Shown here: positions 9,009-55,305 of the stretch, in pieces
Position numbering within the stretch: the stretch's first letter is position 1
Layout of the letters: each line of letters starts with the position of its first letter
Assembly: GCA_963837495.1 (NCBI GenBank)
Contig: CAWINF010000001.1
Coordinates: 841,843-905,842, forward strand
Source of the DNA: an uncultured Acidobacteriota bacterium
Lineage (GTDB): Bacteria; Acidobacteriota; Thermoanaerobaculia; UBA5066; Gp7-AA6
Length of the DNA stretch: 64,000 bases
Direction: 5' to 3'
The notes under the pieces: model-generated
Databases searched by the model: none
What the model was told of the DNA's origin: nothing
Seen by the model: the letters and a program-made list of their open reading frames with translations, nothing else
Position numbers and translations under genes: made by a program

Positions 9009-9015
9009 GACTCTC

Positions 9016-9134: not shown

Positions 9135-9147
9135 GAGGACAAGCCTC

Positions 9148-14237: not shown

Positions 14238-14251
14238 GAAGGCCGCAAGAG

Positions 14252-15907: not shown

Positions 15908-15910
15908 GAC

Positions 15911-16498: not shown

Positions 16499-16581
16499 TC
16501 CCCTGCAATCGCTACGCTCCCGGTTGCATGCTGGTGATTTATTGGATGTGTCGCCGAGGGCGTGTCGAGGAAACGCCTCCC

Positions 16582-16625
16582 TTGTCATCCTGAGCGAAGC
16601 GAAGGATCTGCTCTCGTCGCAGGAC
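16582..16625. repeat. Half MITE (TTGTCATCCTGAGCGAAGCGAAGGATCTGCTC)
   Basis: Matches the left arm of elements at 908 and 14051. Confidence 0.5.
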
Positions 16626-22422: not shown

Positions 22423-22521
22423 CGAGCGAGCCGGCGCCTTTCGAAAGCATACGCGACGCCAGGCGTAGAATCGTTCTTCAGGACTGACTCGCAGCCCCGC
22501 GGTGTATGATTCCCTTCCGAG

Positions 22522-23178: not shown

Positions 23179-23249
23179 ACGGCATGTACTCGCCCGAACC
23201 ACACCGAAGAGGTAGATCAACGGAACCACACAGCGCATCGTCAAATGCA

Positions 23250-23390
23250 ACCGAAGGAGTGAAGTCGCATCGGATCGAGGGCCAGGCAGTTCGGGTATTC
23301 GGAATCGCCAAGACAATCGCGGACTGTTTCAAGTACCGCAACAAGATCGGCCTGGACGTTGCTCTCGAAGCGCTCAGTCAGAGGTGAGCC
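23250..23390 (+). pseudogene. C-terminal fragment resembling the AbiEi-type (type IV TA) antitoxin C-terminal domain
   Basis: ...RVFGIAKTIADCFKYRNKIGLDVALEAL* with no N-terminal part in frame. Confidence 0.3.
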
Positions 23391-23804
23391 ATGAGACCGA
23401 AAGTCGAGTTCGTCGAGATCGTTTCCGACACCGCTTTGAAGCAGAAGGAGAAGGAGGCAACGGAAGCGGTGAGGCGTCTGTGCCCCGACTGCGGTCCGGT
23501 GCACCTTTATCGGACGGCCGACGGAAAGGTCGGGATTCAACTGCAGATCGCCTTGGCTCCCGGAAACAGGAAACTGTTGGATGAAATCTACCGGGCCGTG
23601 ATGAAGGTTGTGGGTCAGCGACGAGGACGCCCGGTTGGCCAGAAGACCGTGCAAACCAAGCTTCGCCTGCCCGAACCTGTCTACGATCTTCTCAAGCGAG
23701 CTGCCGAGAAGTCTCACTCGACGATGTCAAGCGTCGTGGCGGACTCGCTGCGAGACCTTCTCGAATCGAGACTCTCGGCCGAACGACGCCGGTCTCATCC
23801 GTAG
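23391..23804 (+). CDS. Hypothetical protein with C-terminal ribbon-helix-helix-like segment
   Basis: TKLRLPEPVYDLLKRAAEKSHSTMSSVVADSLRDLL. Confidence 0.35.
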   Translation: MRPKVEFVEIVSDTALKQKEKEATEAVRRLCPDCGPVHLYRTADGKVGIQLQIALAPGNRKLLDEIYRAVMKVVGQRRGRPVGQKTVQTKLRLPEPVYDLLKRAAEKSHSTMSSVVADSLRDLLESRLSAERRRSHP

Positions 23805-23837
23805 CCCTCGGAGGGTCCTGGCGTCGGCTCAACCGGG

Positions 23838-23890
23838 CTCCTTCACCCCGCCTTCCGGAAGATCTCGAAGCGTTCGGCGAGGAAGTCGCA
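23838..23890 (-). repeat. Copy of the HNH endonuclease gene 3-prime end (encodes ...PDCDFLAERFEIFRKAG); compare 37199-37290
   Basis: Sequence CCGCCTTCCGGAAGATCTCGAAGCGTTCGGCGAGGAAGTCGCAGTCGGGACC aligns with 27722-27790, 28540-28600, 37199-37260. Confidence 0.55.
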
Positions 23891-23891
23891 G

Positions 23892-24040
23892 TCGGGACCA
23901 GTCATTCGCGGCACCCGTATCCCCGTCGAGTTGATCCTGAGAAGACTTGGCGAGGGCGCCACCGAGGCTGAGCTCCTCGATGGCGCGCGCGAGCACGCTA
24001 AGAGTTCTCCGCCCTCGGACTGGTTGAGGATTCTGTCGCT
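23892..24040 (+). pseudogene. DUF433 fragment (VIRGTRIPVELILRRLGEGATEAELLDG) followed by decayed frame
   Basis: Motif match only. Confidence 0.35.
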
Positions 24041-24113
24041 CCGCCCGGACCACGACTCGGCTTGCCGGTAGGCGGCGGGGTGTCACAAGAGCGCCGGCTC
24101 CGGTGTCATATTC

Positions 24114-25001
24114 GTGGGTGCCATGGAATCTCGCGAAACGGTGTTCGCCTCGGTGCGTCCCCTGCTGTTCTCCATCGCGTACCGGATGCTCGGCAGCGTG
24201 GCGGACGCCGAGGACCTGGTCCAGGAGACCTACCTGCGCTGGCAGGAGGCTTCCGAAGCCGACGTGCGCTCGCCGCGCGCCTACCTCGCGACGATCCTCA
24301 CCCGCCTCGCCATCAACCATCTCCGCTCCGCGCGGGTCCAGCGCGAGACCTACGTGGGGACGTGGCTTCCGGAGCCGGTCGTGACCGAGCCGGCCTCGGA
24401 CCCTTCCGGCGCGGTCGAGCTGTCGGAGTCCCTCTCGATCGCGTTCCTGGTCCTCCTCGAGCGCCTGTCTCCGATCGAGCGCGCCGTGTTCCTGCTGCGG
24501 GAAGTCTTCGATTTCGAGTACGCGGAGATCGGCCGGATCGTTGACAAGACCGAAGCCAACTGCCGCCAGCTCTTCGCGCGGGCAAGGAAGCGCATCGGCG
24601 CGTCCCGGCGCCGTTTCCAGGCCGCGCCGAAACAGGCGGATCGCCTCGTTGAAGAGTTCACGAAGGCGTCGCAGGCCGGCGACATGGACGGCCTCGTCGG
24701 CCTCCTGGCGAAGGACATCACCCTCTGGGCCGACGGCGGCGGCAAGGCGGCGGGCGCGGCGCTCGAGCCGGTGCGCGGCGCGGCCGGCGTCGCCCGATTC
24801 GTCGTCGGCGTCATACAGCGGTTCGTGCCCGAAGGCACCGCGGTGCGCCGCGTCGAGATCAACGGCCAGCCCGGCTTCATCGCGTACGTGAGCGGCCGCC
24901 CGCTGGCGGCGCTGGTGTTCGACATCCACCGCGGCCGCATCCGCGAGATCTACGCGATCGGGAACCCCGACAAGCTGCGCGCCCTGCCCACCGTGATGTA
25001 G
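24114..25001 (+). CDS. ECF sigma factor, ECF41/SigJ-like, with C-terminal SnoaL/NTF2-like extension
   Basis: Region 2 (LLFSIAYRMLGSVADAEDLVQETYLRW), region 4 (EYAEIGRIVDKTEANCRQLFARARKRI), ~100-aa C-terminal extension. Confidence 0.8.
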   Translation: MGAMESRETVFASVRPLLFSIAYRMLGSVADAEDLVQETYLRWQEASEADVRSPRAYLATILTRLAINHLRSARVQRETYVGTWLPEPVVTEPASDPSGAVELSESLSIAFLVLLERLSPIERAVFLLREVFDFEYAEIGRIVDKTEANCRQLFARARKRIGASRRRFQAAPKQADRLVEEFTKASQAGDMDGLVGLLAKDITLWADGGGKAAGAALEPVRGAAGVARFVVGVIQRFVPEGTAVRRVEINGQPGFIAYVSGRPLAALVFDIHRGRIREIYAIGNPDKLRALPTVM

Positions 25002-25093
25002 GGCGGGCCTCGCGCCCGGCCGGGTCGTCCGCCGCCCCGGCTGTCACAAATCAGGTCCCTCGTCTGTCTTATTGCTCGACAGAGGAGGTCACG

Positions 25094-25567
25094 ATGCCGA
25101 ACATGACGAATACGCAAGCGATTCAAACCGCCGCGCTGGCCGGGGAAACGCGCCCGAAGACCGCGTCCTGGATCGACAGGCTGCGGCAACCCGAGGTCAT
25201 CTACTGGATCACCACCAGCATCGTCTGCGCGGTCATGATCTTCAGCGCCGTCAACTTCAACCTGAAGAATCCGCTCGGCCCCATGAAAGGAGCCTTCGTG
25301 CACCTGGGCTACCCGAGCTATTTCCGGATCGAGCTTACGATCGCCAAGGTGTTGGGCGTGGCGGCTCTCCTGATTCCGATCGTCCCGCGAAAGGCCAGGG
25401 AGTTCGCCTACGCGGGATTCGCGATCACCCTGGTCTCCGCCGCCATCGCCCATTTCTCCGTCGGCGACCCGGCTCTGTTCGTGATCGATCCGCTGCTGTT
25501 CCTGATCGTCCTGACCGTCTCCTATCGGTACTTCGGGAAGATCCGGCGTGACAAAACACGCCTATGA
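25094..25567 (+). CDS. DoxX-family membrane protein
   Basis: 4 TM segments; common partner of ECF41 sigma factors. Confidence 0.65.
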   Translation: MPNMTNTQAIQTAALAGETRPKTASWIDRLRQPEVIYWITTSIVCAVMIFSAVNFNLKNPLGPMKGAFVHLGYPSYFRIELTIAKVLGVAALLIPIVPRKAREFAYAGFAITLVSAAIAHFSVGDPALFVIDPLLFLIVLTVSYRYFGKIRRDKTRL

Positions 25568-25590
25568 TTCCGCCCGAGGAGGCATCCGCA

Positions 25591-26250
25591 ATGCCGACCG
25601 ATTCCTCCGCGGTCGCCGATGTCCTCGTCGCCGGCGCGGGCCCGACCGGCCTGACGCTCGCCGCGACGCTCCTCTCCCGCCGCGTGCGGGTCACGGTCGT
25701 GGACCGCCAGGCGGAAGGGGCGAACACGTCGCGCGCCGCGGTCGTGCACGCGCGGACGCTCGAGGTGCTCGAAGATCTCGGCGTCGTCGAGAAGATGACC
25801 GCGCGGGGCATCCACGCTGAACGCTTCACGGTCCGCGACCGTGATCGCGTCCTCATCCGGATCGAATTCGGCGGCCTGCCGACGCGGTACCCGTACACGC
25901 TGATGATCTCGCAGGCCGAGACCGAGGCGATCCTCCTGGCGCGGTTGACCGCGCTCGGCGGCAGTATCCTCCGCCCGCGCGCCGTCGTGGACCTCGCTCA
26001 GGACCCCGACCGCGTGACCGCCACGCTGGAAGACGGCGCGTGGCTGTCCGCCCGCTATCTCGTCGGGGCCGACGGCATGCACAGCACCGTCCGCGAGCGC
26101 GCGCACATCGGCTTCTCCGGCGGCGACTACGAGGAATCCTTCAGCCTCGCCGACGTGCGCCTCTCCGGCGGCGCGCCCCGGGACGAAGTGATCCTAGCCA
26201 GGGTCTTTCGCACCGCTCTGTATCTTTTCGCGAGACCAGAGTCGCTTTGA
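25591..26250 (+). pseudogene. FAD-dependent monooxygenase, N-terminal ~220 aa only (truncated)
   Basis: DVLVAGAGPTGLTLAATL (GxGxxG); DG(x)S-type YLVGADGMHSTVRE; ends abruptly where the inserted TA block begins. Confidence 0.55.
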
Positions 26251-26303
26251 AGCTCGCCCAGATTGGCTCTGGCCTCATCCGTGAAGACGAGCGAAAAGGC
26301 CAT
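26127..26303 (-). pseudogene. RelE/ParE-like toxin N-terminal remnant (MAFSLVFTDEARANLGEL...)
   Basis: Only ~35 aa resemble the family; overlaps the monooxygenase remnant. Confidence 0.3.
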
Positions 26304-26328
26304 CGTCGTGCCGGCGGGAGCGTTCGGG

Positions 26329-26604
26329 CTACTTCCGGCGGGATGAGAACGATCCAAGGGAAGCCGTTCGCCCCGCATCCGCCTCCACCAGACCCTTCCG
26401 CACGCGTCGGAGCGCTTCCGGGTTCTCGAACAGCCATCGCTCTCGCGCGGGGATCTCGGCATAAGGCTCCAGAACGATCTTCCCGTGGGCCTCGACCTTG
26501 ACCCTGTAGCTGCTTACTCCTTCAGCAAGCTTCCCCAGGGTAATCCGACCCTTGGAGTCCGGCCTCACCCTTCCGGCTTCCGCGAACGCGGATGTCCTTG
26601 CCAT
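26329..26604 (-). CDS. AbrB/MazE/SpoVT-type antitoxin
   Basis: RVRPDSKGRITLGKLAEGVSSYRVKVEAHGKIVLEP swapped-hairpin motif. Confidence 0.6.
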   Translation of the reverse strand: MARTSAFAEAGRVRPDSKGRITLGKLAEGVSSYRVKVEAHGKIVLEPYAEIPARERWLFENPEALRRVRKGLVEADAGRTASLGSFSSRRK

Positions 26605-26692
26605 GCGGCCGATGTTAGAGGTGGGTGGGCAATGTGTCAAGTGGGATATCCCACTCAGGCCAGTATTCCGACTGCAGTCGCGTGGTCCATCT

Positions 26693-27031
26693 TCATAGAC
26701 CGGGCACCCGTCCTGTGTGGCGTTCCCCGTTCACCGCCGCGTGAAATGCGGCCCGCGTCTCCGGCCTCGTCCGGTTGATGATGTCGTCCGGCCCGCCAGA
26801 ATCGCCCATCGCCCAGTAACACCAGCCGTCAACGTCAAGATAGTCCTGAAACTTCGCGCGCAGCCTCATCGGCACCCCGTGGGAGTGAATCAGCCGCGCG
26901 GCCTCGTCAAACTCCACCGTGTTGTCGGCCCTCCTCATGAGATATTCGTGCGGCCAGCGCGGCATCGTCTTCGCGTAGGTCCACCGGGTCGCGGCAACAA
27001 ACGCCCTGAACTGTTCGATAGTTCTGACCAT
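26693..27031 (-). CDS. Hypothetical protein
   Basis: ORF MVRTIEQFRAFVAATRWTYAKTMPRWPHEY...; no family recognised. Confidence 0.35.
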   Translation of the reverse strand: MVRTIEQFRAFVAATRWTYAKTMPRWPHEYLMRRADNTVEFDEAARLIHSHGVPMRLRAKFQDYLDVDGWCYWAMGDSGGPDDIINRTRPETRAAFHAAVNGERHTGRVPGL

Positions 27032-27169
27032 ACCTCCAGGCACTCCTCGTACGGGCTCCTGCCGTGTTGCCTGGCTAACACGGGAAGAGGTCTTTTCCTC
27101 CTAGAGCTTGCGCTTCCTGGCGGACATGGCGGTCAGGGAGTCCGAGAGATACGGATCCGGCCGCCGCGG

Positions 27170-27418
27170 ACTGTGACTACAGCCCTCCCCTGGAGTTCAG
27201 CCGAGTGCAGGTCCAGAACCCTCTCCATGAGTTGAATCCGCTTTGCGGCCAGGACGTCAGGCAGCCGAACAATCCCGGAGTGGTTTGCCGCCTCGACCAA
27301 GTACTACTCGGTCCCCAGGGTCCGGTCCTCTTTCTCGTGATTCGATGACGTCGTGACCGTTGTCTCGAAGCCAGTCCGCGAGCCGACGGCCCGCGCACCG
27401 GTCCACGAGGAACCTCAC
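27170..27418 (-). pseudogene. DUF5615 (PIN-like) gene with internal frameshift; GTG start overlaps DUF433 stop (GTGA)
   Basis: VRFLVDRCAGRRLADWLRDNGHDVIESRE... then shifted frame gives ...IVRLPDVLAAKRIQLMERVLDLHSAELQGRAVVTVRGGRIRI. Confidence 0.5.
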
Positions 27419-27672
27419 CGACCGACTCTAACCGCGTCGAGGGAGTCGTCTGCTATTACGGCGTGGGCATAGGCAAGACATGCCCGGACATCGTCCGGCT
27501 CAAGGTCGGGGTAGTCCGCGAGAATTCCGTCGACCGACTCGCCCTGCGCCAAAAGGCTCAAGATCAGCTCGACGGAGATCCTCATCCCGCGAACGACCGG
27601 TTTGCCTCCAAAAATCGCCGGATCGGCGCTGATGCGCTGAAGGAGGGCCGCGTCTTCCATGGCATTTGACAT
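27415..27672 (-). CDS. DUF433 protein
   Basis: ISADPAIFGGKPVVRGMRISVELILSLLAQGESVDGILADYPDLEPDDVRACLAYA. Confidence 0.75.
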   Translation of the reverse strand: MSNAMEDAALLQRISADPAIFGGKPVVRGMRISVELILSLLAQGESVDGILADYPDLEPDDVRACLAYAHAVIADDSLDAVRVGR

Positions 27673-27721
27673 TTTACGCCTCTGTGTCCGTCATCTGGTC
27701 AGACCAATCAGCTCGGCACAG

Positions 27722-27967
27722 TCAACCTGCCTTGCGGAGGGTCTCGTAGCGTTCGGCGAGGAAGTCGCGGTCGGGCTGAAGGTCCCGGCGAGTTGGGATG
27801 AGGATCCGGGCGCCCTGGAAGCCCTGGAGGCTGTGGAGGAGCATCGGTCCGTCCTTCTCCCGGAGGACGTCCTCCCGGATCTCGACGACCAGGTCCGGGC
27901 GTATGCCCAGGACTTGCCTTTCGAAGGCGGCGCCTTCTCTCGACGGAACACCCTTTCGGACGGGCAA
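27722..27967 (-). pseudogene. C-terminal ~80 aa fragment of an HNH endonuclease paralogue
   Basis: GIRPDLVVEIREDVLREKDGPMLLHSLQGFQGARILIPTRRDLQPDRDFLAERYETLRKAG aligns with the C-terminus of the 37175-38143 gene. Confidence 0.55.
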
Positions 27968-28014
27968 AGGCTCGCTTTTTTCTCAGCCTGGGTTTCCGGC
28001 GGGAGGCGATCGGC

Positions 28015-28224
28015 TTGTTGGATCAGGCACTGCGCCGCCATGCCGGGGAGAACAGCGTGGCGGCGAGCGAAGAAACCGATTTTGGGTCAAAATACGTCGT
28101 CGAGGGTCCGCTCGTGGGACCGGACGGCAGGGCAGTAGGGGTTCGCACGGTATGGTTCGTGGAAACGGGCGAGACGGTTCCGCGGTTCGTCACAGCCTAT
28201 CCGTGGAAAGGGGTCGGTAGATGA
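28015..28224 (+). CDS. Small protein, DUF6883-like (family assignment from memory, unverified)
   Basis: YVVEGPLVGPDGRAVGVRTVWFVETGETVPRFVTAYP. Confidence 0.35.
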   Translation: MLDQALRRHAGENSVAASEETDFGSKYVVEGPLVGPDGRAVGVRTVWFVETGETVPRFVTAYPWKGVGR

Positions 28225-28445
28225 TCAAGGAGTTGGATTTGGTCGTGCTTAAACGAGATCTTCCCGAGAGCCAGCTCAAGGCTGGCGACGTGGGCACGGT
28301 TGTGCTTGAGCACACCGGCGGTCGGGGACTGGAAGTGGAGTTCATGACCCTCACCGGCGAGACCGTGGCCGTCGTCACCGTTCCCACGGACGCCGTGCGC
28401 GCAGTCGCCGAGGGCGAGATCGCCCACGTGCGCCGGGTGGCCTAG
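28221..28445 (+). CDS. Small protein, DUF4926-like; ATGA overlap with upstream gene
   Basis: MIKELDLVVLKRDLPESQLKAGDVGTVVLEH...VEFMTLTGETVAVVTVP. Confidence 0.4.
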   Translation: MIKELDLVVLKRDLPESQLKAGDVGTVVLEHTGGRGLEVEFMTLTGETVAVVTVPTDAVRAVAEGEIAHVRRVA

Positions 28446-28539
28446 AGAAAGCCCGGCCTAACGCAGAAACGTCCTCTCCTTCCAACGAAAGCAGCCGCCC
28501 GCAAGTCTCCCGAGTGTTTTCGCTCCCTGTCTTGGCCTC

Positions 28540-28600
28540 ATCCCGCCTTCTCGGAAGATCTCGCAGCGTTCGGCGAAGAAGTGGCGGTCGGCACGCCCAG
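28540..28600 (-). repeat. Third copy of the HNH-gene 3-prime end segment
   Basis: CCGCCTTCTCGGAAGATCTCGCAGCGTTCGGCGAAGAAGTGGCGGTCGG. Confidence 0.45.
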
Positions 28601-28755
28601 GATGTGGCCGTTCTGAACCCGTTCCTTTGTCAAGGTGCCAACGGCCATGTCTTGTGAGAGAATCAAGACACTTCCCGCAACGAGAGAGACCTGATCGGTT
28701 GGCGGCATTCCGTCCTCCGGGGCCTTGATCCGTTTGCTGGATCTTCGGAATCCGG

Positions 28756-31700
28756 ATGGACGCCAAGGTTTTCTGGAACACGCGTGACTGGGCCGACGCG
28801 GTGGCTGCGATGCCCGTCCGCGGGCCCTTGCCGTGCCGCATGGTGCTGGTCTCGCGGGAGCGGGTGGCCCACGTCCTCCGGCGCGAGCTCATCCAAATTG
28901 GCCGGACCGACGCGCTTGCCGGGACGCGCTTCGTGGCGACGCCGTTTGCTGCAGCGGAAGTTCTGCGCGGAGCCGAGACGGCTTTTCAGCCCGGGGAAGA
29001 AACTCTGCGAGCAGCACGGCTTCTGGCTTTGTTCCGGTCCGAACTGAGACTCGTTCACTTCACTCTCGATCTGCTGCGCTCGAAGCCGGGATGGGACGAG
29101 GCCTTCGCCTCAACCATCTCCGATCTCGAGGGAGCCGACCTCCGTCCCTCAGATCTCTCGATGGAATCGGAACGCCTTCGGGACGTCGCCGCGATCTGGA
29201 GCGCGCTCGAGGAGTCCGCCGGCAACTCCTGGACGATCCAGCGGATCTATCTCGAAGCGGCGGCGCAATTGGAGAGAGATCCCGCGGCCTGGCCATTCCA
29301 GGGAGCAACTCTCGCTTCCGCCAGCATTGGCCTGACAGTCGCCGAAGCACGGTTCCTGCGCTCCATCCCGCGGCTGACCGTCGGGCTTCTGGCGGCGAGA
29401 CCGCCGCGCGAGCGCCATCTCGACCGCGTGGAGGCGCTGCTCGGAAAAGAGGCCGGCGACGCGCTGCGATCCGCATCCGTGCCCCGCGCACAGGCGACCG
29501 AGCGAGACTTGCTCGCCTCTTACCTCTTCGAGCCGCCGGTTGTCCTGGCCGATCCAGCGCGTCCGCGAAGCAAGGGACCCGATGGCACGGTCGAGCTCGA
29601 GGAGCATTCGGGCATCGAAGCGGAGCTCGAGGCGACGGCAGACTGGGTCGCTCGACAAGTCGGCGCCGGCATCCCGCTCGAGGAGATCGCCGTCCTGCTC
29701 CCGACTCTCGATTCGGTCGCGGGTCTCGTCGTAGAGCGCATAGCAAGGCTGCCTTTCAGCGAAGGCGGACTGCCGGTGCACGCCGCGGGAGGCTCGCCTC
29801 TGAAAGGAACTTCCGCCGGCGCGCGAGCGCTGGCTGTCGTGCGCGCGCTGCGGACCCACCTGACACCTGAATCGCTGTCGGAAGTTCTACCCGTCCTGCG
29901 CTCGCTTGCGCCCGACGGTCGCCACCTCTCTCACGGCGGCGCGATGGATCTGGCCTGGTCGCTTGGCACGGTCGGCGGAAACCCCGCGCGGCCCGAGGGC
30001 GCCCTGGAGTGGGCGGTTCGCGCCGTCGAGAAGCAGGCGGAGCTCACCAGACAGCTCGCCCTCGCCAAACCTGATGAGGAAGATGGAGACGGCGCAAGCT
30101 TCGGCCGCAGGACCTGGGACAACGAGCGCCTGCTGGAGAACCTCGTCGGGATCGCTCCCGCGCTGGACGCCCTGGCCGGCCTCGCGCGACAAACGATCGA
30201 CGGCAAGACTCTCGCAGAACTCTGGCCCTCGTTTCGTCTCTTTCTGCAGGAGTGGCTGCTCCAGCCGCCGCAGGGCCGCGGCGTTCACGATCTTCTCGAC
30301 GATCGGCTCGCACGGCTGACTTCGGATTCCGCGTGCGGATCGCTCACGGGAGATGACGCGCTGAGGGTCATCGAAGAAACGATCGACTCCCTTCGCGTTC
30401 CCCTCGGCCGATTCGGCGAGCCCGCTGTCTACGTCGGATCAATTCACCAGGCCGTCGGTTTGAGCTTCCGCTCGGTACGCATCATCGGACTCGCCGAAGG
30501 CCAGTTCCCGTTCGTGCCGCGCGAGGATCCGGTCGTTCCCGATTCTCTGCGCTCAACTTTGAGATCCGCCGGGCCATCCGGCAAGGTCGCGTGGCCGGCA
30601 ACCGCCGCGGACCGCGCTCTCGACGGCCTCCATGCTCTCGATATCGTGATTCGTAGCGCGCGGGAGCATGTCGCCCTCTCCGCCCCGCGAACCGACCTGG
30701 AACGCTCCCAGCGCGAGCCCTCGTCCGTGTTCCTGGAGGTTGCCGCCGCGCTTGGCCGTCCCAACAGGGCCACCGGAGAGGCCGGCCGCACGATCCCCAA
30801 CAGCATCGCTCTCGAGCGGGACGGCTTCGAACCGGCGCGCGCAGCCGCCTCCGCGTTTCGCCGGGACAAGCCGCTCGGCGAAGCCGCGTGGCAGGACGGC
30901 GTTTCCAGGGGAGAGCTCGGCGTGCCGCCACACTGGCGCGGCATCCTGTCCCTGGACCTTGCGCGCATAGAGAGCCTGAAATCGTCTGGAGACGCCGGCG
31001 CGATGGACGGGATGCTCGGCATCGCCGACCTGGCCATGCTGCTCCCCGGCCTGACCGCCGAGTACCCGACCTCCCTTTCCGTGCTCAAGACGCTTCTGAC
31101 CTGTCCGCACCAGTTCCTCCTCGCGAATCTCCTCAAGTTCGACGAGCCGAGCGGCGCCCCGCCTCAGCGGGAAATCGGTCAGCCCTATTACGGCAACCTC
31201 TTTCATGCCGTGGCGGCGCGCTTTTCCACACAGCACGGCCTTTCTTTTTGCGCGCGCGAGGGCGCGATTGCCGATTGGCTCGCTCGCGCGGACGCTGTTT
31301 CGGATTCGGCATTCGATGAATTCCTGAAGGAGTACCCCCTCGTCGGGAATGCCGTCCGCGCGCAGCAAAGGGATCGCCTGCGCCGCGATCTGCGGGAGCT
31401 GCTCGAATACGAGTGGAAGAAGCCGAAGCCGCCCCGCCTCGTTGCCTCCGAACGCGGATTTGGCCGGCCCACCCCGGTCGAGCTGAAGATCAACGGCCAC
31501 TCGTTGTTTCTGCGGGGTCGGATCGATCGGATCGATGTCGAGGGCGGGACGACGATCGTCACGGACTTCAAGACTGGGAAGCCCTCTCCCCGCATCGGCG
31601 ACGATGAGAACCCGGATGCCTTGCTCGATCTGCAAATCGCGGCCTACGCGCTCGTAACCCGGTCCCTCGCCGCCGAATGGAAGGTTCCGAAAAGAGTTTC

Positions 31701-31998
31701 AGGCACCTACGTGTATGTCGGGCGCACCGCGGTAACCGAGCGGTCCTTCCGACAGGACTTTGACAAGAACCTGGAGCCGAAGGCGTGGCAATGGCTGGCG
31801 ATCGCCGCCGGGCTCCTCTCGCAAAGGGACTTCCCTCGAACCACCGACCACAAAGACTGCAAGTACTGCCGGTTCAAGCCGGTCTGCGGCGACGACATCC
31901 ACGAGCGCGCCGCGGAGGTCCTCGACGGCGCGGACGGGCCGCTCGGCGACTTCCGGCTGCTGAAGGCGGGTCCCGTTCAAGAAGAAGAGGAAGAGTGA
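28756..31998 (+). CDS. AddB-like subunit: inactivated-helicase N-terminus + PD-(D/E)XK nuclease with C-terminal Cys cluster
   Basis: 1080 aa; C-terminal DFKTGK...CKYCRFKPVCG; gene order nuclease-subunit then helicase-nuclease as in addBA. Confidence 0.65.
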   Translation: MDAKVFWNTRDWADAVAAMPVRGPLPCRMVLVSRERVAHVLRRELIQIGRTDALAGTRFVATPFAAAEVLRGAETAFQPGEETLRAARLLALFRSELRLVHFTLDLLRSKPGWDEAFASTISDLEGADLRPSDLSMESERLRDVAAIWSALEESAGNSWTIQRIYLEAAAQLERDPAAWPFQGATLASASIGLTVAEARFLRSIPRLTVGLLAARPPRERHLDRVEALLGKEAGDALRSASVPRAQATERDLLASYLFEPPVVLADPARPRSKGPDGTVELEEHSGIEAELEATADWVARQVGAGIPLEEIAVLLPTLDSVAGLVVERIARLPFSEGGLPVHAAGGSPLKGTSAGARALAVVRALRTHLTPESLSEVLPVLRSLAPDGRHLSHGGAMDLAWSLGTVGGNPARPEGALEWAVRAVEKQAELTRQLALAKPDEEDGDGASFGRRTWDNERLLENLVGIAPALDALAGLARQTIDGKTLAELWPSFRLFLQEWLLQPPQGRGVHDLLDDRLARLTSDSACGSLTGDDALRVIEETIDSLRVPLGRFGEPAVYVGSIHQAVGLSFRSVRIIGLAEGQFPFVPREDPVVPDSLRSTLRSAGPSGKVAWPATAADRALDGLHALDIVIRSAREHVALSAPRTDLERSQREPSSVFLEVAAALGRPNRATGEAGRTIPNSIALERDGFEPARAAASAFRRDKPLGEAAWQDGVSRGELGVPPHWRGILSLDLARIESLKSSGDAGAMDGMLGIADLAMLLPGLTAEYPTSLSVLKTLLTCPHQFLLANLLKFDEPSGAPPQREIGQPYYGNLFHAVAARFSTQHGLSFCAREGAIADWLARADAVSDSAFDEFLKEYPLVGNAVRAQQRDRLRRDLRELLEYEWKKPKPPRLVASERGFGRPTPVELKINGHSLFLRGRIDRIDVEGGTTIVTDFKTGKPSPRIGDDENPDALLDLQIAAYALVTRSLAAEWKVPKRVSGTYVYVGRTAVTERSFRQDFDKNLEPKAWQWLAIAAGLLSQRDFPRTTDHKDCKYCRFKPVCGDDIHERAAEVLDGADGPLGDFRLLKAGPVQEEEEE

Positions 31999-34900
31999 CC
32001 GTGGCGGCGAAGACGAAAAAGGCGCCGCCGGACCAGGCTCAACGCGATGCGGCCATCAAGGAGCGCGACCGCAACGTGATCGTGAATGCCGGCGCGGGCA
32101 CCGGGAAGACTTCCATCCTCGTGAGCCGCTTCGTCGAGATGGTCGCCCCGGCGAAATCTGCCGCGCCCGCGGTTGCAATCCCCCGCATCGCAGCCATCAC
32201 GTTCACGCGGAAGGCCGCCGGAGAACTGCGCTTTCGCATCCGGGAACGTCTGCTGGCCGAGCTGGCAAGTGTCAAGCCAGATTCTCCCCGCGAAGGCCAG
32301 CTCCGCGAAGCCCTGGCTGGTTTCGACACGGCCTACGTAGGAACGATTCACAGCTTCGCCGATCGCCTTTTGCGTCTTCAGCCTGTCAAAGCGTCGCTCA
32401 GCCCCTCGTACGAAATCGCCGAGGACGATGAGGCGCTGGTCCACGAAACGTTCCAGGTGCTTCTGCAGGCCGTCGAGAGCGAAACTCTCGCCGCCGAGCT
32501 CGAGGGCGACGGCGCGGCAGCGCGGGCCGATGAGGCCACGCGAACCATCCTGGACGCCATTGCCGCCGGTTTGCAGGCGGAGACCCGTGAGACAGAGTTT
32601 TGGGTGTATTCCGGGCTGGACGCCCTCGTAAAAGGCTTTCTCCGGCAGCGCGATGTGCCGCCGCCGTTCGACGCTCCTCCCGCCTCGATTGATTTCGGAG
32701 CCTTCCGCAAAGCCGCGGACGAATTCATACGCGAAGCCGCTCCGGTTATCGGCGGATCCATCAGCGCGGCATGGATCAAACAAACGGCGGAGATCCTCGC
32801 CGGCGTCCGAAACCTGGAAGACCCGATCGCCCTGTATCGCAGCCTCGGCCTGCAACTGCGCCGCAGGTCGCCCAAGAGTGACGCCCAGAAAGGCAGAGAC
32901 TTCGGCGGCGATGCCGCGGCCTGGCGGGTGTGGAAGCTGTACAGCAAGGCTGACGGGAAGCTTCGCCCGACCCCGCTCCGCAATGACCTGCGGGCGCCGC
33001 TCGAGCGCTGGATGGCCAGCCGCCTCGTCCGTCTCTTTCCAGTCGTGAAGGCTCTCTACGAAAAGGTTAAAGCGCGCCACAGGCAACTCGACCAGCTCGA
33101 CCTGCTTTTCAAGTTGCGTACCCTCCTCAAAGACAACCGCGAAGTGCGGGCCGAGTTCCAGGGAATGTTCGATCACATCTTCGTGGACGAATTCCAGGAT
33201 ACGGATCCGCTCCAGGCGGAGATCGTGCTCTTCCTCTGCGAGCGGGGACCCGTCGCGGCGCGTTGGGAGGACGTCCGTCTCGCCGGCGGGAAGCTGACGG
33301 TGGTCGGCGACGCCAAACAGTCCATCTACCGGTTCCGCCGGGCGGACGTGGCGATGTACGACCGCGTCCTGCGCGTCATCGCGAAGACGCCGCTCCTCGA
33401 GGTCAGGCTCTCCGCGAACTTCCGGAGCGTTCCTCCTCTCATCGACTGGTTCAACGACCGGTTTGCTCGCATCCTCAGAGAATCGCAAGACGCCTTCGAC
33501 CCCGTGACCGGGCGGGTCTTCCACCAGCCGCTCGCGAGGGGTCGCGACGTCCCCGGCCCGCCATCCGTCCATGTCCTGAATCTCGCCTTTTCGGACGGCG
33601 AGAAGCACAACGCTGATGACTACCGCTCACTCGAAGGCCGGGCGCTGGCCCGGTACCTGCGCTGGTTGACCGAAACGGATGACGTCCGGATCCTCGACCC
33701 GTTCGACGAGCGCCTCCGGAAGGTTCGATACGGCGACATCGCGGTTCTGGCGGCCTCGACGTGGAGCCTTCCTCATCTGTTCCAACCGCTGGACGAGGAG
33801 GGCATCCCCTACGCATCGCGCGGCGGCGTCCTGTTCCTCAAAGACCCGCTCCACCGGCAGTTCCTGCTCGGTCTCCGAGCCATCGCCGACCGCGATGACG
33901 GCGTCGCCATGGCGGCTTTGCTCCGGCCCCCTTTCTTCGCCGTAGATCCCGCGGACCTCCTCCGCGAGCAAGTCGCGACCCGCGCCGGAGAAGCGCCCGC
34001 CGGAGACTCCGCCCTCCGCGCCCGGGAAGCTCGAGACCTGGTTGTTGACCTGCGCCGGCGCAGATCCGGCCGCCCTCCCGGCGCGACCGCGCGGGACCTG
34101 CTGGAGCGCACGGCGTTCGCGCGCAACGTGGCTTCCGGGCCGAACGGCACGCAGCGCCTCGCGCGGCTGCGGGAGCTTTGCCTGCTCCTGGAGCAGCTCG
34201 CCGCCGATGAAGGGCTCGACTACGACGCCGCGACGTCCCTCATGCGGGAGTGGGTGGATGATCCTGTCCAGCTCGACCCGCCACATCCCGTCGGAGCCGA
34301 AGCGGTTCAAATCCTGACCGTCCATCAGGCCAAAGGCCTCGAGTTTCCCGTCGTCGTCATCTGGGACGGGCAGGGCAAATGGGCCCCGCCCGCCGGGAAC
34401 GCCCCCTGGCGCATGGAGCGTGATGGCCGAGGCTGGATGATGGATCTCGCCGGCCTGACGTGGGAGGAGCCCGCCGGTCTCGGCATCCGCAAGACGGAGC
34501 TCGACTACCAGAGACAGGAGCGTGAGCGCGTGGCCTACGTCGCCGCCACCCGCGCCCGCGACCTGCTGGTCATTCCGAAAGCCGGCGACCTCAAGCCAGG
34601 GACTTACGTGTGCAGCGATCTTCTCGCTGAAGCGCCCTCCCATCTTGTCAACGAGCTCGAGCCCTACACTGACGGCCACGAGCCCGCCTGGGCCACGCAG
34701 AAACCCGCAACCACGCAGCTCCCCAAAGATGGAGGAACTGTCGAACAGGCAACCGACGCCTGGTGGACAGCCGCCTCTGCGGAATCCGCCCGCCCCCGCT
34801 TCCGCCCCGCGAGTGTCTCCGGCGAGACTCAATCCACCCCCGTGGACGACACCGAGGAAGTGGTGGATCCCGCCCTCGCGAAACCACGGGAAGGCCGCTT

Positions 34901-35372
34901 GGGCCCTCTGTTCGGCACGGCAGTTCACCACGCAATCGGCCTCATCCTTCGTGACAGCACCCTGACACCCGAGGAAGCCGCCCGCCGGGCCGCCAGGCGA
35001 TTCGGCCTCGAGGACCACCTCCCCGAGTGCATCGCCGACGTCACCCGAGCCCTCGACTCCCTCCGAACAGAGGGCCTCGCCCGCCCCCTCGGCCCCGACC
35101 TCCAGGTCGAATACTCTGTCGCCGCGGAATGGGAAGGCGGCCAACTCCTGGGCGGCTACATCGACCTCGTCAGCGCGACCGACGGCCGCCTCGACGTACT
35201 CGACTTCAAGACCGACGCCCCACCGCAAGGGCCGGTGGAGCAGACCTACCCGGAGTACGCGGTCCAGGTGCAAACCTACGGCCGCCTTCTGGAGACAACC
35301 GCCGCGCTCGGAGCCCATGAACTCCGCTGCGGCCTTCTCTTCACGGCCGACGGAGGAATCCGATGGGTCTAA
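31995..35372 (+). CDS. AddA-like UvrD/Rep-family helicase with C-terminal nuclease domain; GTG start overlaps upstream stop (GTGA)
   Basis: NAGAGTGKTSILVSRF (Walker A), ITFTRKAAGELRFRI, VDEFQDTDPLQ, TVVGDAKQSIYRFRRAD, TVHQAKGLEFPVVV, C-terminal DFKTD. Confidence 0.75.
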   Translation: MTVAAKTKKAPPDQAQRDAAIKERDRNVIVNAGAGTGKTSILVSRFVEMVAPAKSAAPAVAIPRIAAITFTRKAAGELRFRIRERLLAELASVKPDSPREGQLREALAGFDTAYVGTIHSFADRLLRLQPVKASLSPSYEIAEDDEALVHETFQVLLQAVESETLAAELEGDGAAARADEATRTILDAIAAGLQAETRETEFWVYSGLDALVKGFLRQRDVPPPFDAPPASIDFGAFRKAADEFIREAAPVIGGSISAAWIKQTAEILAGVRNLEDPIALYRSLGLQLRRRSPKSDAQKGRDFGGDAAAWRVWKLYSKADGKLRPTPLRNDLRAPLERWMASRLVRLFPVVKALYEKVKARHRQLDQLDLLFKLRTLLKDNREVRAEFQGMFDHIFVDEFQDTDPLQAEIVLFLCERGPVAARWEDVRLAGGKLTVVGDAKQSIYRFRRADVAMYDRVLRVIAKTPLLEVRLSANFRSVPPLIDWFNDRFARILRESQDAFDPVTGRVFHQPLARGRDVPGPPSVHVLNLAFSDGEKHNADDYRSLEGRALARYLRWLTETDDVRILDPFDERLRKVRYGDIAVLAASTWSLPHLFQPLDEEGIPYASRGGVLFLKDPLHRQFLLGLRAIADRDDGVAMAALLRPPFFAVDPADLLREQVATRAGEAPAGDSALRAREARDLVVDLRRRRSGRPPGATARDLLERTAFARNVASGPNGTQRLARLRELCLLLEQLAADEGLDYDAATSLMREWVDDPVQLDPPHPVGAEAVQILTVHQAKGLEFPVVVIWDGQGKWAPPAGNAPWRMERDGRGWMMDLAGLTWEEPAGLGIRKTELDYQRQERERVAYVAATRARDLLVIPKAGDLKPGTYVCSDLLAEAPSHLVNELEPYTDGHEPAWATQKPATTQLPKDGGTVEQATDAWWTAASAESARPRFRPASVSGETQSTPVDDTEEVVDPALAKPREGRLGPLFGTAVHHAIGLILRDSTLTPEEAARRAARRFGLEDHLPECIADVTRALDSLRTEGLARPLGPDLQVEYSVAAEWEGGQLLGGYIDLVSATDGRLDVLDFKTDAPPQGPVEQTYPEYAVQVQTYGRLLETTAALGAHELRCGLLFTADGGIRWV

Positions 35373-35399
35373 TGGTGAGCTTCCTGTAAAGTCGGGCCC

Positions 35400-36464
35400 G
35401 TGACGGCCGATCTGAATCCTGTGGACGAGCTTCAGTCCAGATTCGGAATCACATGGGAACAAATCAACGCCGCGCGGAAACGCTCTTCGACTGTTCGGGC
35501 CGAACTAACTAAGACTCTGCGGGCGGAGGACTCGGAGGCGGCTTGCATCGTTGGGTACGGGTCTCTCGCCAGGCAAGAGTGGACATCCGGAAGCGATGTC
35601 GATTGGACATTATTGGTGGACGGCCAGGCAGATCCCCAGCACGCACAGACGGTGAACCGAGTTGAGGGCGCCTTGACTGCCGGCAGCCACAAGCATCCGG
35701 GCCGCACTGGCACATTCGCAAGCCTTTCATCCAGCCATGACCTTGTGCACAAGATCGGCGGCGCAGAGGACACGAACCAGAACACGACGCGGCGGATTCT
35801 GCTGCTGCTCGAATCGATTCCTCTCGGTAGATCCGACGCCTACGATCGAGTGAAGCGCAACATCCTTCATCGGTACATCCTGGAAGACCGCGGTCTTCGG
35901 TTCGGAACAACAGATTTCGTTCCCCGCTTTCTGCTGAACGACATCGCTCGATACTGGCGAACGATGGCGGTCGATTTCGCCCAGAAACAGCGTGATCGAG
36001 GGGGACACGGTTCAGGATTGAGGAATGCAAAACTTCGGCTGTCTCGAAAACTCATTTTCGCCTCGGGTCTTCTGAACTGCCTGCGATGCCATGTTGCCCC
36101 CGAGCTTCATACCGTTCGATCGAACCGGCGTTCTCTGGAGTCCGCAGCACTGCTCGTTGTGCACTTTGAGGAGTACCTGAAGATGACGCCCCTCGAGAAC
36201 CTCGCGAAGGCAGTGGTTGACTTTTCTGCCAGTGCGGAAGTTGCCAGGGCGCTTTTTGGAGCGTACGATACTTTTCTCGGCGTTCTCAACAACGATACCA
36301 AGCGGACTCACTTGGATGATCTCGAACCCGAAGCTTTCGAAGGCGACGCTATTTTCGGCGAGGTTCTCGATCTCAGCCACGAATTTCAGAATGGTCTCGA
36401 CGGCTTGTTCTTCGCCACCGATGCAACGTTGACCAGGCTTACCCAGAAATACGGGGTGTTCTGA
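35400..36464 (+). CDS. Nucleotidyltransferase-fold protein (minimal NTase motif GS-x9-DxD) with large helical C-terminal domain, resembling GlnD/GlnE/DUF294-type substrate-binding region; GTG start
   Basis: IVGYGSLARQEWTSGSDVDWTLLV; C-terminal GGHGSGLRNAKLRLSRKLIFASGLL resembles GlnE G-G-G-x-R-[DN]-[IA]-[EK]-[FL]. Confidence 0.55.
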   Translation: MTADLNPVDELQSRFGITWEQINAARKRSSTVRAELTKTLRAEDSEAACIVGYGSLARQEWTSGSDVDWTLLVDGQADPQHAQTVNRVEGALTAGSHKHPGRTGTFASLSSSHDLVHKIGGAEDTNQNTTRRILLLLESIPLGRSDAYDRVKRNILHRYILEDRGLRFGTTDFVPRFLLNDIARYWRTMAVDFAQKQRDRGGHGSGLRNAKLRLSRKLIFASGLLNCLRCHVAPELHTVRSNRRSLESAALLVVHFEEYLKMTPLENLAKAVVDFSASAEVARALFGAYDTFLGVLNNDTKRTHLDDLEPEAFEGDAIFGEVLDLSHEFQNGLDGLFFATDATLTRLTQKYGVF

Positions 36465-37186
36465 TGAGGGTCATCGGCTTTTCGACGGGCGCGGTTGCAA
36501 AAGGCGACTTTCGACGTGCGCTCGGTCTCATCACCGCTGCAAGCGTCGAAGCGGTAGAGCTTTCTGCCCTGCGTCTATCTGAGCTCCAACCGCTCCTTCG
36601 TGCCTTGCCTACCCTGGACCTATCGTCCTTTGGCTATATTTCCGTGCACGCCCCGAGTTCCTTCGCTGAGAGCGACGAAGACGGCGTCGTCAGAGACCTC
36701 GAAGAGTTCACGAGAAGAGACTGGAACGTCATTGTCCACCCGAACGTGATTTATCACCCAGCGGTCTGGCGGAACTTGGGTAGGCGTCTTCTGATTGAGA
36801 ATATGGACCGCCGAAAAGCAGTTGGGCGAACCGCTCCCGAGCTTCGAGGGCTGCTGAACTCGCTTCCGGAGGCCGGGCTCTGCCTCGATCTCGGCCACGC
36901 CCGTCAGGTAGATCCGACGATGACTGAGGCGCTAATGCTGCTCAGGTGGTTTGGGTCTCGGGTTCGCCAGCTTCACGTCAGCGAGGTCAACGAGCGAAGT
37001 CATCATGACCCCATCAGCGCGGGTTCGATAGACGCCTTTCGGTCGATTTCCGATCTCCTGCCCTCGGACGTCCCAATCATCCTTGAGCCCCTCATCGACG
37101 AAGGGCAGAGCGAAATCTCTGTCGAGATAGAGAAGGCGGCAGCGGCCCTCCAGCCCGAAACCTCCCGCGTGGCCTCAGCCGTCTAG
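36464..37186 (+). CDS. Xylose-isomerase-like TIM-barrel protein (sugar-phosphate isomerase/epimerase / AP-endonuclease family 2-like); TGATG overlap with the NTase gene
   Basis: LCLDLGHA and LHVSEVNERSHHDPISAGSIDF resemble the metal-binding motifs of the family. Confidence 0.45.
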   Translation: MRVIGFSTGAVAKGDFRRALGLITAASVEAVELSALRLSELQPLLRALPTLDLSSFGYISVHAPSSFAESDEDGVVRDLEEFTRRDWNVIVHPNVIYHPAVWRNLGRRLLIENMDRRKAVGRTAPELRGLLNSLPEAGLCLDLGHARQVDPTMTEALMLLRWFGSRVRQLHVSEVNERSHHDPISAGSIDAFRSISDLLPSDVPIILEPLIDEGQSEISVEIEKAAAALQPETSRVASAV

Positions 37187-38143
37187 CTCGACGTCATCCC
37201 GCCTTCCTGAAGATTTCGTAGCGCTCGGCCAGGAAGTCGCGGTCGGGCTGGAGGTCTCGGCGGGTCGGGATGAGGATTCGGGAGAGCTCTGGAAGCCCTG
37301 GAGACCGTGGAGGAGCATCGGGCCGTCCTTTTCTCGGAGGATGTCTTGTCGGATCTCGACGATAAGGTCCGGGCGCACACCCAGGATTTGGCCGTCGAAG
37401 GCGGCGTGGTGGAGCTTGCAGAGAGCCAGGCCGTTCGAGACCGTCGGGTCGCCCTTGGGATGGCGGTCCGGGAGGATGTGGGCGGCGTCGAGCAGCTCGA
37501 AGTGCCTGAGGCGGCAGACGGCGCAGCGCTCCTGATACGCCCGGATCACCCGAACCCGGAACCCCGCCTGATGGAGGCGTTGCTGCGTCACTCGCGTGAC
37601 GTAGGCCCGCCTAGCATCGGAGAGGTCGGAGACGAGATGCGCCGTATCCATGACCGCAGCGTCCTTCAGGTCCACGGCCACTGAAAATGCCAGCGACTCG
37701 GGATGATCCCGGACGATGAACACCGGCCAGACCGGCAGGTACTCACCGGGAACTACACCGTAGAGATAGATCAGCGGAACTGCACGCCGCATCGCCAGAC
37801 GCAGCCCCGCGTTGTCCCGATGCCTCGGATCCGTCCCGCGGTACCGGTAGAGAAGGAGACCGTTCTCGTCCATCTCGTCTTCATAGGGCCGTTGTCGCCC
37901 TTCAATCACCGGCGTGGTGTTGAAGGTTAGAGGCATCTCGGGCAAAACGGCTGGCTTGAAGATGCCCTGCGGATTGATGAGCGGAACCCTCTGCCCGTCG
38001 AACCAGAAACCCTCGGCCAGGATTTTGCGCGGGAGCACCTCACCCCGAAGCTCCGTCTGAGTTCGGAGAAACTCGAACGCCGCGATCCTGACCCGCTGGT
38101 CAAACTCCCGCGCCGCCGTCCATGGATCCTGATCCTCGGTCAC
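37175..38143 (-). CDS. HNH endonuclease (HNH_2-type) with ~200-aa N-terminal domain; apparent +2 indel shifts the last ~30 codons relative to the 27722-27967 paralogue fragment
   Basis: CAVCRL...LDAAHILP...NGLALCKLHHAAFD; C-terminus LHGLQGFQSSPESS... vs paralogue LHSLQGFQGARILIPTRRDLQPDRDFLAERYE. The correct-frame RILIPTRRDLQPDRDFLAERYEIFRKAG is present in DNA at 37199-37290. Confidence 0.65.
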   Translation of the reverse strand: MTEDQDPWTAAREFDQRVRIAAFEFLRTQTELRGEVLPRKILAEGFWFDGQRVPLINPQGIFKPAVLPEMPLTFNTTPVIEGRQRPYEDEMDENGLLLYRYRGTDPRHRDNAGLRLAMRRAVPLIYLYGVVPGEYLPVWPVFIVRDHPESLAFSVAVDLKDAAVMDTAHLVSDLSDARRAYVTRVTQQRLHQAGFRVRVIRAYQERCAVCRLRHFELLDAAHILPDRHPKGDPTVSNGLALCKLHHAAFDGQILGVRPDLIVEIRQDILREKDGPMLLHGLQGFQSSPESSSRPAETSSPTATSWPSATKSSGRRDDVELDG

Positions 38144-38329: not shown

Positions 38330-41826
<3,497 letters not shown>

Positions 41827-41830
<4 letters not shown>

Positions 41831-43562: not shown

Positions 43563-43616
43563 CGGGTTACCTGCTACTACCAAACGCCGAAGCGTGGCGG
43601 AGTACGCTGAGTCGCT

Positions 43617-44414: not shown

Positions 44415-44419
44415 TCAGG

Positions 44420-47296: not shown

Positions 47297-47299
47297 CTC

Positions 47300-52866: not shown

Positions 52867-52873
52867 GGAACCA

Positions 52874-55295: not shown

Positions 55296-55305
55296 TCGCC
55301 AATTG

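Follow-up and report, generated by a model that had tools for sequence, protein, structure and literature searches.

The question raised by this locus is how unrelated blocks of genes came to lie between repeated pieces of one and the same gene. The locus is part of a 64-kb window (the whole stretch of DNA that was analysed) on contig CAWINF010000001.1 of an uncultured Acidobacteriota bacterium, and the repeated gene encodes an HNH endonuclease at the edge of the Hma defence system. A first-pass annotation had read the copies as the trace of serial site-specific integration into the 3' end of the gene, with recombination between HNH paralogues kept as a fallback. The evidence given below points to another origin: the relics are probably successive HNH alleles left by sequential displacement, in which segments from related strains would have brought a complete HNH gene together with their own downstream cargo.

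HNH gene copies in the window

Six full HNH genes of the clade were made into a DNA profile, and an nhmmer search with it on both strands of the window recovered one complete gene and four relics, all in the same orientation, with matches far beyond chance (relic E-values from 2e-53 to 2e-6); a repeat search and blastn of the window gave the same copies. The complete gene, copy A (37194–38143, minus strand; nhmmer match 38143–37195, E 0), is the only full-length HNH_2 (PF13391) gene in the window and is divergent from hmaA. Copy B (27722–27932, minus strand; nhmmer 27931–27723, profile positions 739–947, E 2e-53) is a 3' relic comprising amino acids (aa) 247–315, that is, 69 codons without a stop or an indel. 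Copy C (28538–28611, minus strand) is a decayed 3' relic in which ~aa 249–256 are fused to aa 299–315 through an internal deletion (~aa 257–298), and the stop codon is lost by an insertion of 1 nucleotide (nt); the nhmmer match covers 28591–28539 (E 2e-6), and the upstream 21 nt (28611–28591), weak alone, are collinear with the rest of the copy. Copy D (23843–23896, minus strand; nhmmer 23896–23844, E 2e-9) is a 3' relic of ~aa 298–315, whereby its 5' end is joined to an opposite-strand DUF433 gene without its first ~17 codons. Fragment E (23167–23276, minus strand; nhmmer E 5e-14, profile positions 313–436) is a mid-gene relic of ~aa 105–145, the most divergent of all (76–81% identity), and lies back-to-back with a 5'-truncated AbiEi fragment. 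The order is now A, block 1, C, block 2, B, block 3, D, ORF137, E and a Ser/Thr kinase gene.

The 5' limits of the relics are thus scattered over the gene (~aa 105 in E, 247 in B, 249 in C and 298 in D). The C-terminal ends are homologous in all copies (DFLAERYEIFRKAG), copies A–D share 81–92% nt identity, and the homology of the copies ends at the stop codon or ~12–24 nt beyond it. The four sites and their common orientation had been recognised correctly in the first-pass annotation, but the limits of B, C and D are those given here; the open reading frame (ORF) to 27967 overshoots the homology in B. Fragment E is a fifth piece that the count of four copies had missed. A further, very decayed HNH 3' end was considered at 22435–22675 beside the kinase gene; it was seen only by tblastn at E>5, the profiles did not confirm it, and it is not claimed.

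The 3' end at 37199–37290 is attached to the complete gene, as had been described, but it is not in frame with it. A 2-nt insertion (TC) near 37283–37286 causes a +2 frameshift that puts the last 29 codons of copy A out of frame. After frame correction, the product has 315 aa and covers 100% of the nearest database proteins (P0001 and P0002) at 91% identity. Either a genuine inactivation or a fault of the assembly may lie behind the insertion; the large ORFs neighbouring copy A are intact. Judged by its layout, the protein is a putative modification-dependent restriction nuclease. Both the TagI HNH domain and NF045808, the NCBIfam model of a phosphorothioate-DNA-binding restriction endonuclease, match it weakly, the latter below the cut-off.

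Relatives of the locus

Closely related HNH genes, some at 90–91% protein identity, are present on four contigs; on three of these (L001, L002 and L090), hmaA lies next to the gene. In these three, hmaA–HNH is syntenic with the window at 87–91% nt identity and the Hma system at 88–91%. The cargo after the HNH stop codon differs from locus to locus: a DUF433/DUF5615 pair in L001, AbiE and toxin-antitoxin genes in L002, HicAB in L090, and in the window the PDC-M70 pair (a nucleotidyltransferase, NTase, and a TIM-barrel protein, TIM) with an AddAB-like pair. Each of the three relatives has its own HNH relics. In L001, the DUF433/DUF5615 pair is followed by an HNH copy running from ~aa 239 to the stop codon, a mosaic that is 84% identical to the locus' own gene and then 98.9% identical over the last 94 nt; this fits a later gene conversion between gene and relic. 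The same copy is interrupted at codon 281/282 by a 166-nt miniature inverted-repeat transposable element (MITE; 11722–11887) with a TA target duplication and ~19-bp terminal inverted repeats (GCCCGCATAATCCATGGAC / GCCCGGATAATTTATGGAC). L002 has 7 kb of AbiE and toxin-antitoxin genes with HNH fragments of aa 66–88, 241–249 and 258–272, and its outermost relic (aa 304–315) lies ~220 nt from the same kinase gene as that of the window (85% identity). Directly beyond this relic stands an ~80-nt intergenic element resembling a repetitive extragenic palindrome (REP) or MITE (17712–17852), which is also found, facing either way, among the housekeeping genes of the window (961–1043, 9014–9139, 14137–14239 and 16578–16619). 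In L090, HicAB is followed by a relic of aa ~278–313.

Such relics are not limited to the nearest relatives. In L006, L017, L067, L068 and L073 they are 84–99% identical to the gene of their own locus, and the geometry noted in the first-pass annotation, a foreign block with a displaced HNH 3' end on its far side, holds and recurs in L001, L002, L090, L006, L067 and L073. The 5' ends of the relics in relatives vary as in the window (aa 239 in L001, 265 in L006, 278 in L090 and 103 in L067). The recurrence was counted on the 17 HNH family loci whose downstream sequence reaches at least 5 kb; five of them (about 30%) have downstream relics. The downstream relics are 3' pieces, and the upstream relics (L017 and L068) are 5' pieces. 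A third relic in L006, which seemed to start at the HHAAFD codons, was rejected as such: it also has codons of ~aa 210–214, joined by a microhomology deletion.

The distant relative L091 comes closest to an emptier allele: its single HNH gene faces a convergent PDC-M70-like operon, and HNH relics are absent. A homologue of ORF137 (85.6%) lies 3.9 kb from the HNH gene there, as opposed to 13.4 kb in the window. The differences between L091 and the window do not begin or end at repeat copies, and L001, L002 and L090 are all occupied. The sources of L001, L002, L090 and L091 are ENA ERZ25039463 and JGI 3300064809, 3300051099 and 3300061690. Wider searches gave little: an exact look-up of the hmaA product of the window found no record of it, a scan of the genome collection with a single HNH protein found only two distant loci (51% identity), and a scan of viral contigs found two irrelevant loci only. 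P0045, an HNH allele present on hundreds of contigs, had the same stable context without relics in all ten places among the matches listed; these uniform contexts give no information on turnover.

Several family loci carry more than one HNH gene. In L067 (9986–13098), an HNH gene with a secreted 243-aa protein is followed in tandem by a 5'-truncated HNH copy (aa 103–314, 84% nt identity) with a 238-aa paralogue of that protein; the two partner proteins are 45% identical, and an IS481-type transposase gene lies upstream (8581–9732). A second, distant HNH_2 paralogue, 29–40% identical to ~aa 137–315, stands directly upstream or downstream in many loci (L006, L008, L010, L017, L020, L022, L025, L028, L029, L043, L050, L053, L061, L062, L074–L079 and L084) and is absent from the window; this suggests a two-gene arrangement in those lineages. 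On the more distant L088 and the contig of P0015, the divergent HNH_2 gene borders not Hma but a Type I or IIG-like restriction-modification system, and one of these contigs has an HNH_2 gene at each end of a Type I system.

Allele history of the copies

The copies are distinct alleles. Allele comparison was based on the 207 nt common to B and the full genes; the lengths of C, D and E do not suffice for an allele phylogeny, and the tests concern B only. In a neighbour-joining tree with 1000 bootstraps, B grouped with the main gene of L001 in 81% of the replicates and with A in none (0/1000). The synonymous divergence (dS) over the same positions was 0.55 between A and B, 0.34 between A and L001, and 0.29 between B and L001. 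The ratio of nonsynonymous to synonymous divergence (dN/dS) of B against functional genes was 0.17–0.25, about twice that between functional genes (0.06–0.12). These values, together with the lack of any stop or indel, indicate that most of the divergence of B arose inside a working gene. From these comparisons, B reads as an L001-type allele that was functional while it diverged and lost its 5' part fairly recently, rather than as a duplicate of A decaying in place.

Copy D is nearest to the displaced copy of L001 (92.6% identity over 54 nt). Both adjoin an opposite-strand DUF433 gene and have similar flanks after the stop codon, and D is probably older than the split of these two genomes. 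Exchange has also gone on in recent times: ORF116 of block 3 shares 97% DNA identity with L002 (13383–13731), exactly over the ORF and ~20 nt, whereas the conserved surrounding genes are 85–89% identical and the flanks are unrelated, which indicates a recent exchange of an ORF-sized piece.

The HNH gene and its convergent neighbour have a history in common. The TIM–HNH junction of the window aligns with that of L091 in a single high-scoring segment pair of 1726 nt (76% identity) despite the NTase proteins being only 59% identical, so that the two were inherited or moved as a unit. PDC-M70 is convergent on the HNH gene, with stop codons 5–7 nt apart, both in the window (35400–37186) and in L091 (2563–4349); in the latter, a gene for a 499-aa PD-(D/E)XK/RNase_H_2-like protein precedes it in place of the AddAB-like pair. 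The NTase and TIM pair is also found in L092 (89% identity). HNH_2 and PDC-M70 may be functionally linked.

Junctions and the search for an att site

Integrative elements such as tRNA-gene islands and phage 21 and e14 in icd target the 3' end of a gene and supply a substitute end. Integration at tRNA genes is mentioned in PMC2853133. The HNH locus resembles these cases in having a displaced 3' end at the far side of the insert and scattered substitutions relative to the substitute end. In those systems, however, an integrase gene stands beside the att site, there is an exact core and the homology has a fixed left limit; none of these is found here. Serial site-specific integration would mean that elements with a substitute HNH 3' end entered an att core, the integrases having since been lost or acting in trans. 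The same-orientation 3' copies that bound the blocks agree with this, as does the end of homology at or shortly after the stop codon; B, C and the L001 copy all begin between aa 239 and aa 249, and distinct alleles are also expected of element-borne substitute ends.

Most other features of the junctions speak against it. The first-pass annotation had seen no integrase; likewise, Pfam scans revealed no integrase, resolvase or transposase domain, nor a relic of one, in the main ORFs of the 22.4–37.2 kb region, in the six-frame translation of 22423–24113 with its debris, or in the 46 window ORFs scanned in all. The L001 and L090 inserts are ~600-bp toxin-antitoxin pairs, too small to hold a recombinase. 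When the four segments were aligned for a shared core, as the first-pass annotation had proposed, no in-register exact stretch common to A, B, C and D exceeded 5 nt, with pairwise maxima of 10–21 nt; this is strong but not absolute evidence against an att site, since decay could have erased a core. Neither the window nor the relatives give the repeated segment one constant 5' boundary with element ends left intact; overall, the limits spread from aa 103 to aa 298. The junctions are irregular, and at least two of them truncate an adjacent gene (DUF433 at D, AbiEi at E). A 3' att site cannot be the source of the mid-gene relics (E, and aa 66–88 in L002) or of the upstream 5' relics in L017 and L068. 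No hairpin was evident in the repeat, as DNA folds on both strands were no better than those of shuffled sequences (z −0.22 to +0.93), and a promoter and terminator scan found nothing at the HNH copies.

The flank after the stop codon deserves separate mention. An 11-nt flank (CGTCGAGCTAG) is common to the window gene, the L090 gene and the outermost relic of L002, followed by a few more similar bases, which in the window and L091 encode the native TIM C-terminus. Since this C-terminus is native in L091, the 11 nt are a leftover of the TIM 3' end passed on by descent and not a target site. For the same reason, one exact joining site for different cargos after TGACGTCGAGCTAG, considered for the window, L090 and the far relic of L002, was rejected.

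Sequential displacement as the proposed mechanism

In sequential displacement, a segment from a related strain, with homology in hmaA/HNH and the donor's own downstream cargo, would recombine into the locus. One end would be joined by homologous recombination within the conserved hmaA/HNH region, and the other by an illegitimate joint that falls within the resident HNH gene or past it. The complete HNH gene on the new segment would become the functional copy. The resident gene would lose its 5' part, while its 3' end and its own downstream genes would stay, shifted one step toward the kinase gene. Repeated rounds, together with deletions, small insertions and gene conversion, could then give the present order of blocks. 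We infer from this arrangement both which way each event ran and that the molecular route was one-sided homologous recombination. Later changes are visible as short-repeat internal deletions (C and the third L006 relic), the MITE insertion in L001 and gene conversion in L001.

Such a process accounts for the single full-length copy beside hmaA with co-oriented 3' relics that have different flanks, as well as for the allele-level divergence, the irregular joints and the lack of a recombinase; one of the joints, between an HNH relic and the start of ORF116 in L002, has a 4-nt microhomology (AGAA). It also accounts for the captured piece of an ordinary operon in block 3 and, in mirror image, for the upstream 5' relics of L017 and L068. 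The polarity of the relics, 3' pieces downstream and 5' pieces upstream, fits displacement. The fallback of the first-pass annotation, recombination between HNH paralogues, comes close to what this evidence supports.

Arrays of this kind are known from other genes. CdiA-CT/CdiI orphans form C-terminal displacement arrays. For the effector-immunity arrays of the Vibrio cholerae type VI secretion system (T6SS), joining has been proposed to be homologous on one side and illegitimate on the opposite side (Kirchberger 2017, PMC5361080), and the same displacement model was put forward for the orphan 3' regions of Rhs genes (Jackson 2009, as cited in PMC5361080). As in the T6SS, Rhs and CdiA arrays, a complete gene is followed by co-oriented 3' remnants with their own downstream genes, also in L001, L002, L006 and L090; there is a conserved upstream anchor (here hmaA and HNH) and no integrase, the arrays differ between close relatives, and a remnant is a former functional allele (here for B only). 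As opposed to those arrays, the displaced HNH ends are homologous (81–92% nt identity) instead of being polymorphic toxin domains, and the gene, which lies beside Hma, encodes an HNH_2 nuclease of the restriction type. Downstream stand unrelated genes (defence, toxin-antitoxin or ordinary) in place of cognate immunity genes, so that there is no obvious selection to keep them. With homologous C-terminal ends and unrelated downstream genes, the locus is array-like but not a polymorphic-toxin locus.

Several points weigh against sequential displacement. No parental (pre-event) allele was found, and hence no displacement event could be reconstructed base by base. The decay of the relics is not monotonic with distance, the nearest relic, C, being more damaged than B. 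Moreover, three or four relic 5' ends (L001, the L002 fragment at 15.5 kb, B and C) fall within ~30 nt, at aa 239–249. This is not expected of random illegitimate joints unless the relics share ancestry; shared descent can explain the cluster, which lies just after the HHAAFD codons. Homology-facilitated illegitimate recombination is rare and experimentally known from few competent species (PMC5361080, PMC3240628), and the route would assume DNA uptake by this uncultured organism.

Alternative explanations

A RecA-dependent cassette shuttle is an unlikely alternative, although several details agree with it. The HNH 3' fragment would serve here as a portable homology handle: an excised circle with the cassette and one copy could re-enter any HNH 3' end by a single crossover, giving an integron-like array without an integrase. 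The clustering of relic 5' ends at aa 239–249 within the clade would suit such a handle, and so would the gene-conversion or crossover tract between gene and relic in L001. The compact toxin-antitoxin operons of L001 and L090 begin ~35 nt from the relic 5' end, every operon is transcribed away from the adjacent relic, and the 97% identity of ORF116 to L002, against 85–89% around it, indicates a recent exchange of cassette-sized DNA. Nevertheless, that block in L002 is bounded by microhomology and not by an HNH handle, and the 5' junction of B meets a DUF6883 frame without a start codon, which is not an intact cassette boundary. Mid-gene and 5' relics are not predicted by a shuttle, copies only 81–92% identical over 54–211 nt are a poor RecA substrate, and no circular or empty forms were seen. 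Integron arrays share with the locus ordered, compact cassettes beside a fixed gene, many of them toxin-antitoxin genes, with the newest presumably nearest the fixed end; they differ in that no IntI was found in the window scans, and the HNH repeat is a coding sequence without an attC-like hairpin (fold z −0.2 to +0.9). A broader form of the shuttle, in which HNH_2 genes at the edges of defence systems are landing pads and the cassettes carry an ~230-nt HNH 3' handle starting just after the catalytic HHAAFD codons, seems quite unlikely. If true, host homologous recombination would excise, exchange and re-insert the cassettes, which would make the system an integrase-free analogue of integrons.

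Insertion with long target duplication is very unlikely. It would require every insertion to have made a local copy of the resident 3' end, with the copies diverging in place afterwards. This mode of insertion was described for restriction-modification genes by Nobusato and Furuta (PMC2853133), and the repeats of that class are near-identical copies (e.g., 44/46) of a target that an empty-site genome has only once (PMC2853133). The likeness lies in the defence genes, here the PDC-M70/AddAB and toxin-antitoxin blocks, flanked by long direct repeats of variable length (54–211 nt here, >30 bp in the published class), much longer than transposon target duplications and with no mobility gene nearby. 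As opposed to that class, the HNH repeats are different alleles and there is no clean empty site: B groups with the L001 allele and is not sister to A, and its divergence bears the signature of purifying selection. The relic in L001, with the last 94 nt 98.9% identical to the end of its own gene, would suit a recent duplication, but the mosaic as a whole (84%, then 98.9%) fits later gene conversion instead. L067 resembles a tandem repeat of HNH gene and partner, but with HNH parts 84% identical in nt and partner proteins only 45% identical it is not one simple duplication.

Serial site-specific integration, as proposed in the first-pass annotation, is highly improbable given the divergent alleles, the missing common core, the differing 5' limits, the cut neighbouring genes and the mid-gene relic E. 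Divergent copies without a common core are also the result that the first-pass annotation had itself named as refuting this reading.

Genes between and around the copies

The description of the blocks between the copies in the first-pass annotation was correct, as judged by Pfam for domains and PADLOC for defence systems; the NTase/TIM pair proved to be PDC-M70A/B. Block 1 (28756–37186, plus strand) is convergent with copy A and comprises genes for an AddB-like PD-(D/E)XK protein (28756–31998), an AddA-like UvrD/PD-(D/E)XK helicase (31785–35372), the PDC-M70A NTase (35400–36464; a PADLOC candidate system) and the PDC-M70B TIM barrel (36464–37186), all on the plus strand, whereby the TIM stop codon is 7 nt from the HNH stop codon. 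Block 2 (27933–28445, plus strand) holds DUF6883 and then DUF4926 (28221–28445). The DUF6883 gene has no in-frame start codon before TTG at 28015, and its reading frame continues upstream to the junction with B; the Pfam match, for the ORF from 28015 only, covers profile positions 47–109 of 110. The gene appears to be 5'-truncated at this junction.

Block 3 (24114–27672) has genes on both strands. On the minus strand are DUF433 (27415–27672), a DUF5615 fragment (27257–27418), ORF116 (26693–27043; no Pfam or NCBIfam match) and a 103-aa ORF (26329–26640); on the plus strand are genes for a truncated flavin adenine dinucleotide (FAD) monooxygenase (25564–26250), DoxX_2 (25094–25567) and a sigma factor of the extracytoplasmic function type ECF41 (24114–25001). 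The truncated ECF41/DoxX/monooxygenase operon piece looks like an illegitimate capture and not like a mobile element. Around D lies debris on the plus strand (23270–24071): an AbiEi C-terminal fragment (23270–23387), assigned by reading the translation and not by a profile match, ORF137 (23391–23804), with a weak Arc-like match and convergent with D, and a DUF433 fragment (23898–24071), 5'-truncated at D. A 69-nt repeat (84% identity) occurs at 15871–15939 and 27068–27136, one copy just upstream of ORF116 and the other beside a 74-aa ORF (15683–15907); it may be a common promoter or 5' leader of small island genes.

Both flanks are conserved. To the right of the HNH gene, the Hma defence system (38330–50677, plus strand) is the anchor. 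Hma consists of the HmaA SNF2 helicase, the HmaB DUF1156 methylase and the HmaC DUF499 ATPase in one locus. This set is complete in the window, with a PADLOC E-value of 0 for all three genes: hmaA (38330–41830), which is divergent from the HNH gene, hmaB (44420–47296) and hmaC fused to HEPN (47300–50677), all on the plus strand. The far flank is a gene for a Ser/Thr kinase with PD40/WD40 repeats (19873–22422, plus strand), and the first 14.7 kb of the window hold housekeeping genes.

Downstream of Hma, the region 50734–54735 encodes a GmrSD_N/Schlafen-AlbA_2 protein (best PADLOC match HEC-05), then an Nmad2-domain protein and then a below-threshold UDG-like match; it looks like a further module related to DNA-modification sensing. 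The region 54754–61694 contains a direct repeat of 130–300 nt in 6–7 copies (starts at 54754, 54918, 56049, 57224, 58675, 60183 and 61521) with 65–97% identity and a spacing of 1.1–1.5 kb, as well as a 276-nt repeat pair at 58371 and 61147 (89% identity). Its units are Unstab_antitox/ParE-type toxin-antitoxin genes interleaved with a PIN_2 gene, a tandem paralogue array that also has the look of blocks delimited by repeats.

Implications

The frameshift in copy A means that the sole full-length HNH gene of the window may be inactive. For annotation, HNH relics of this sort should neither be marked as att sites nor used to delimit genomic islands. The locus belongs to a known kind, the array of displaced 3' ends, and is a new instance of it in a restriction-type HNH gene beside Hma.

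The HNH gene sits at the edge of Hma, and the stretch from its 3' end to the core genes (kinase and CutA1) is an accumulation zone for defence and toxin-antitoxin genes. Defence islands turn over fast, and the route is seldom visible; the order of the HNH relics is a partial record of how the island grew beside Hma. Segments of HNH plus neighbours appear to arrive by recombination in conserved defence genes and not through dedicated mobile elements. Overall, the presence of the same trail in about 30% of the family loci with sufficient flanking sequence suggests that conserved defence genes can act as anchors for the acquisition of defence and toxin-antitoxin genes.

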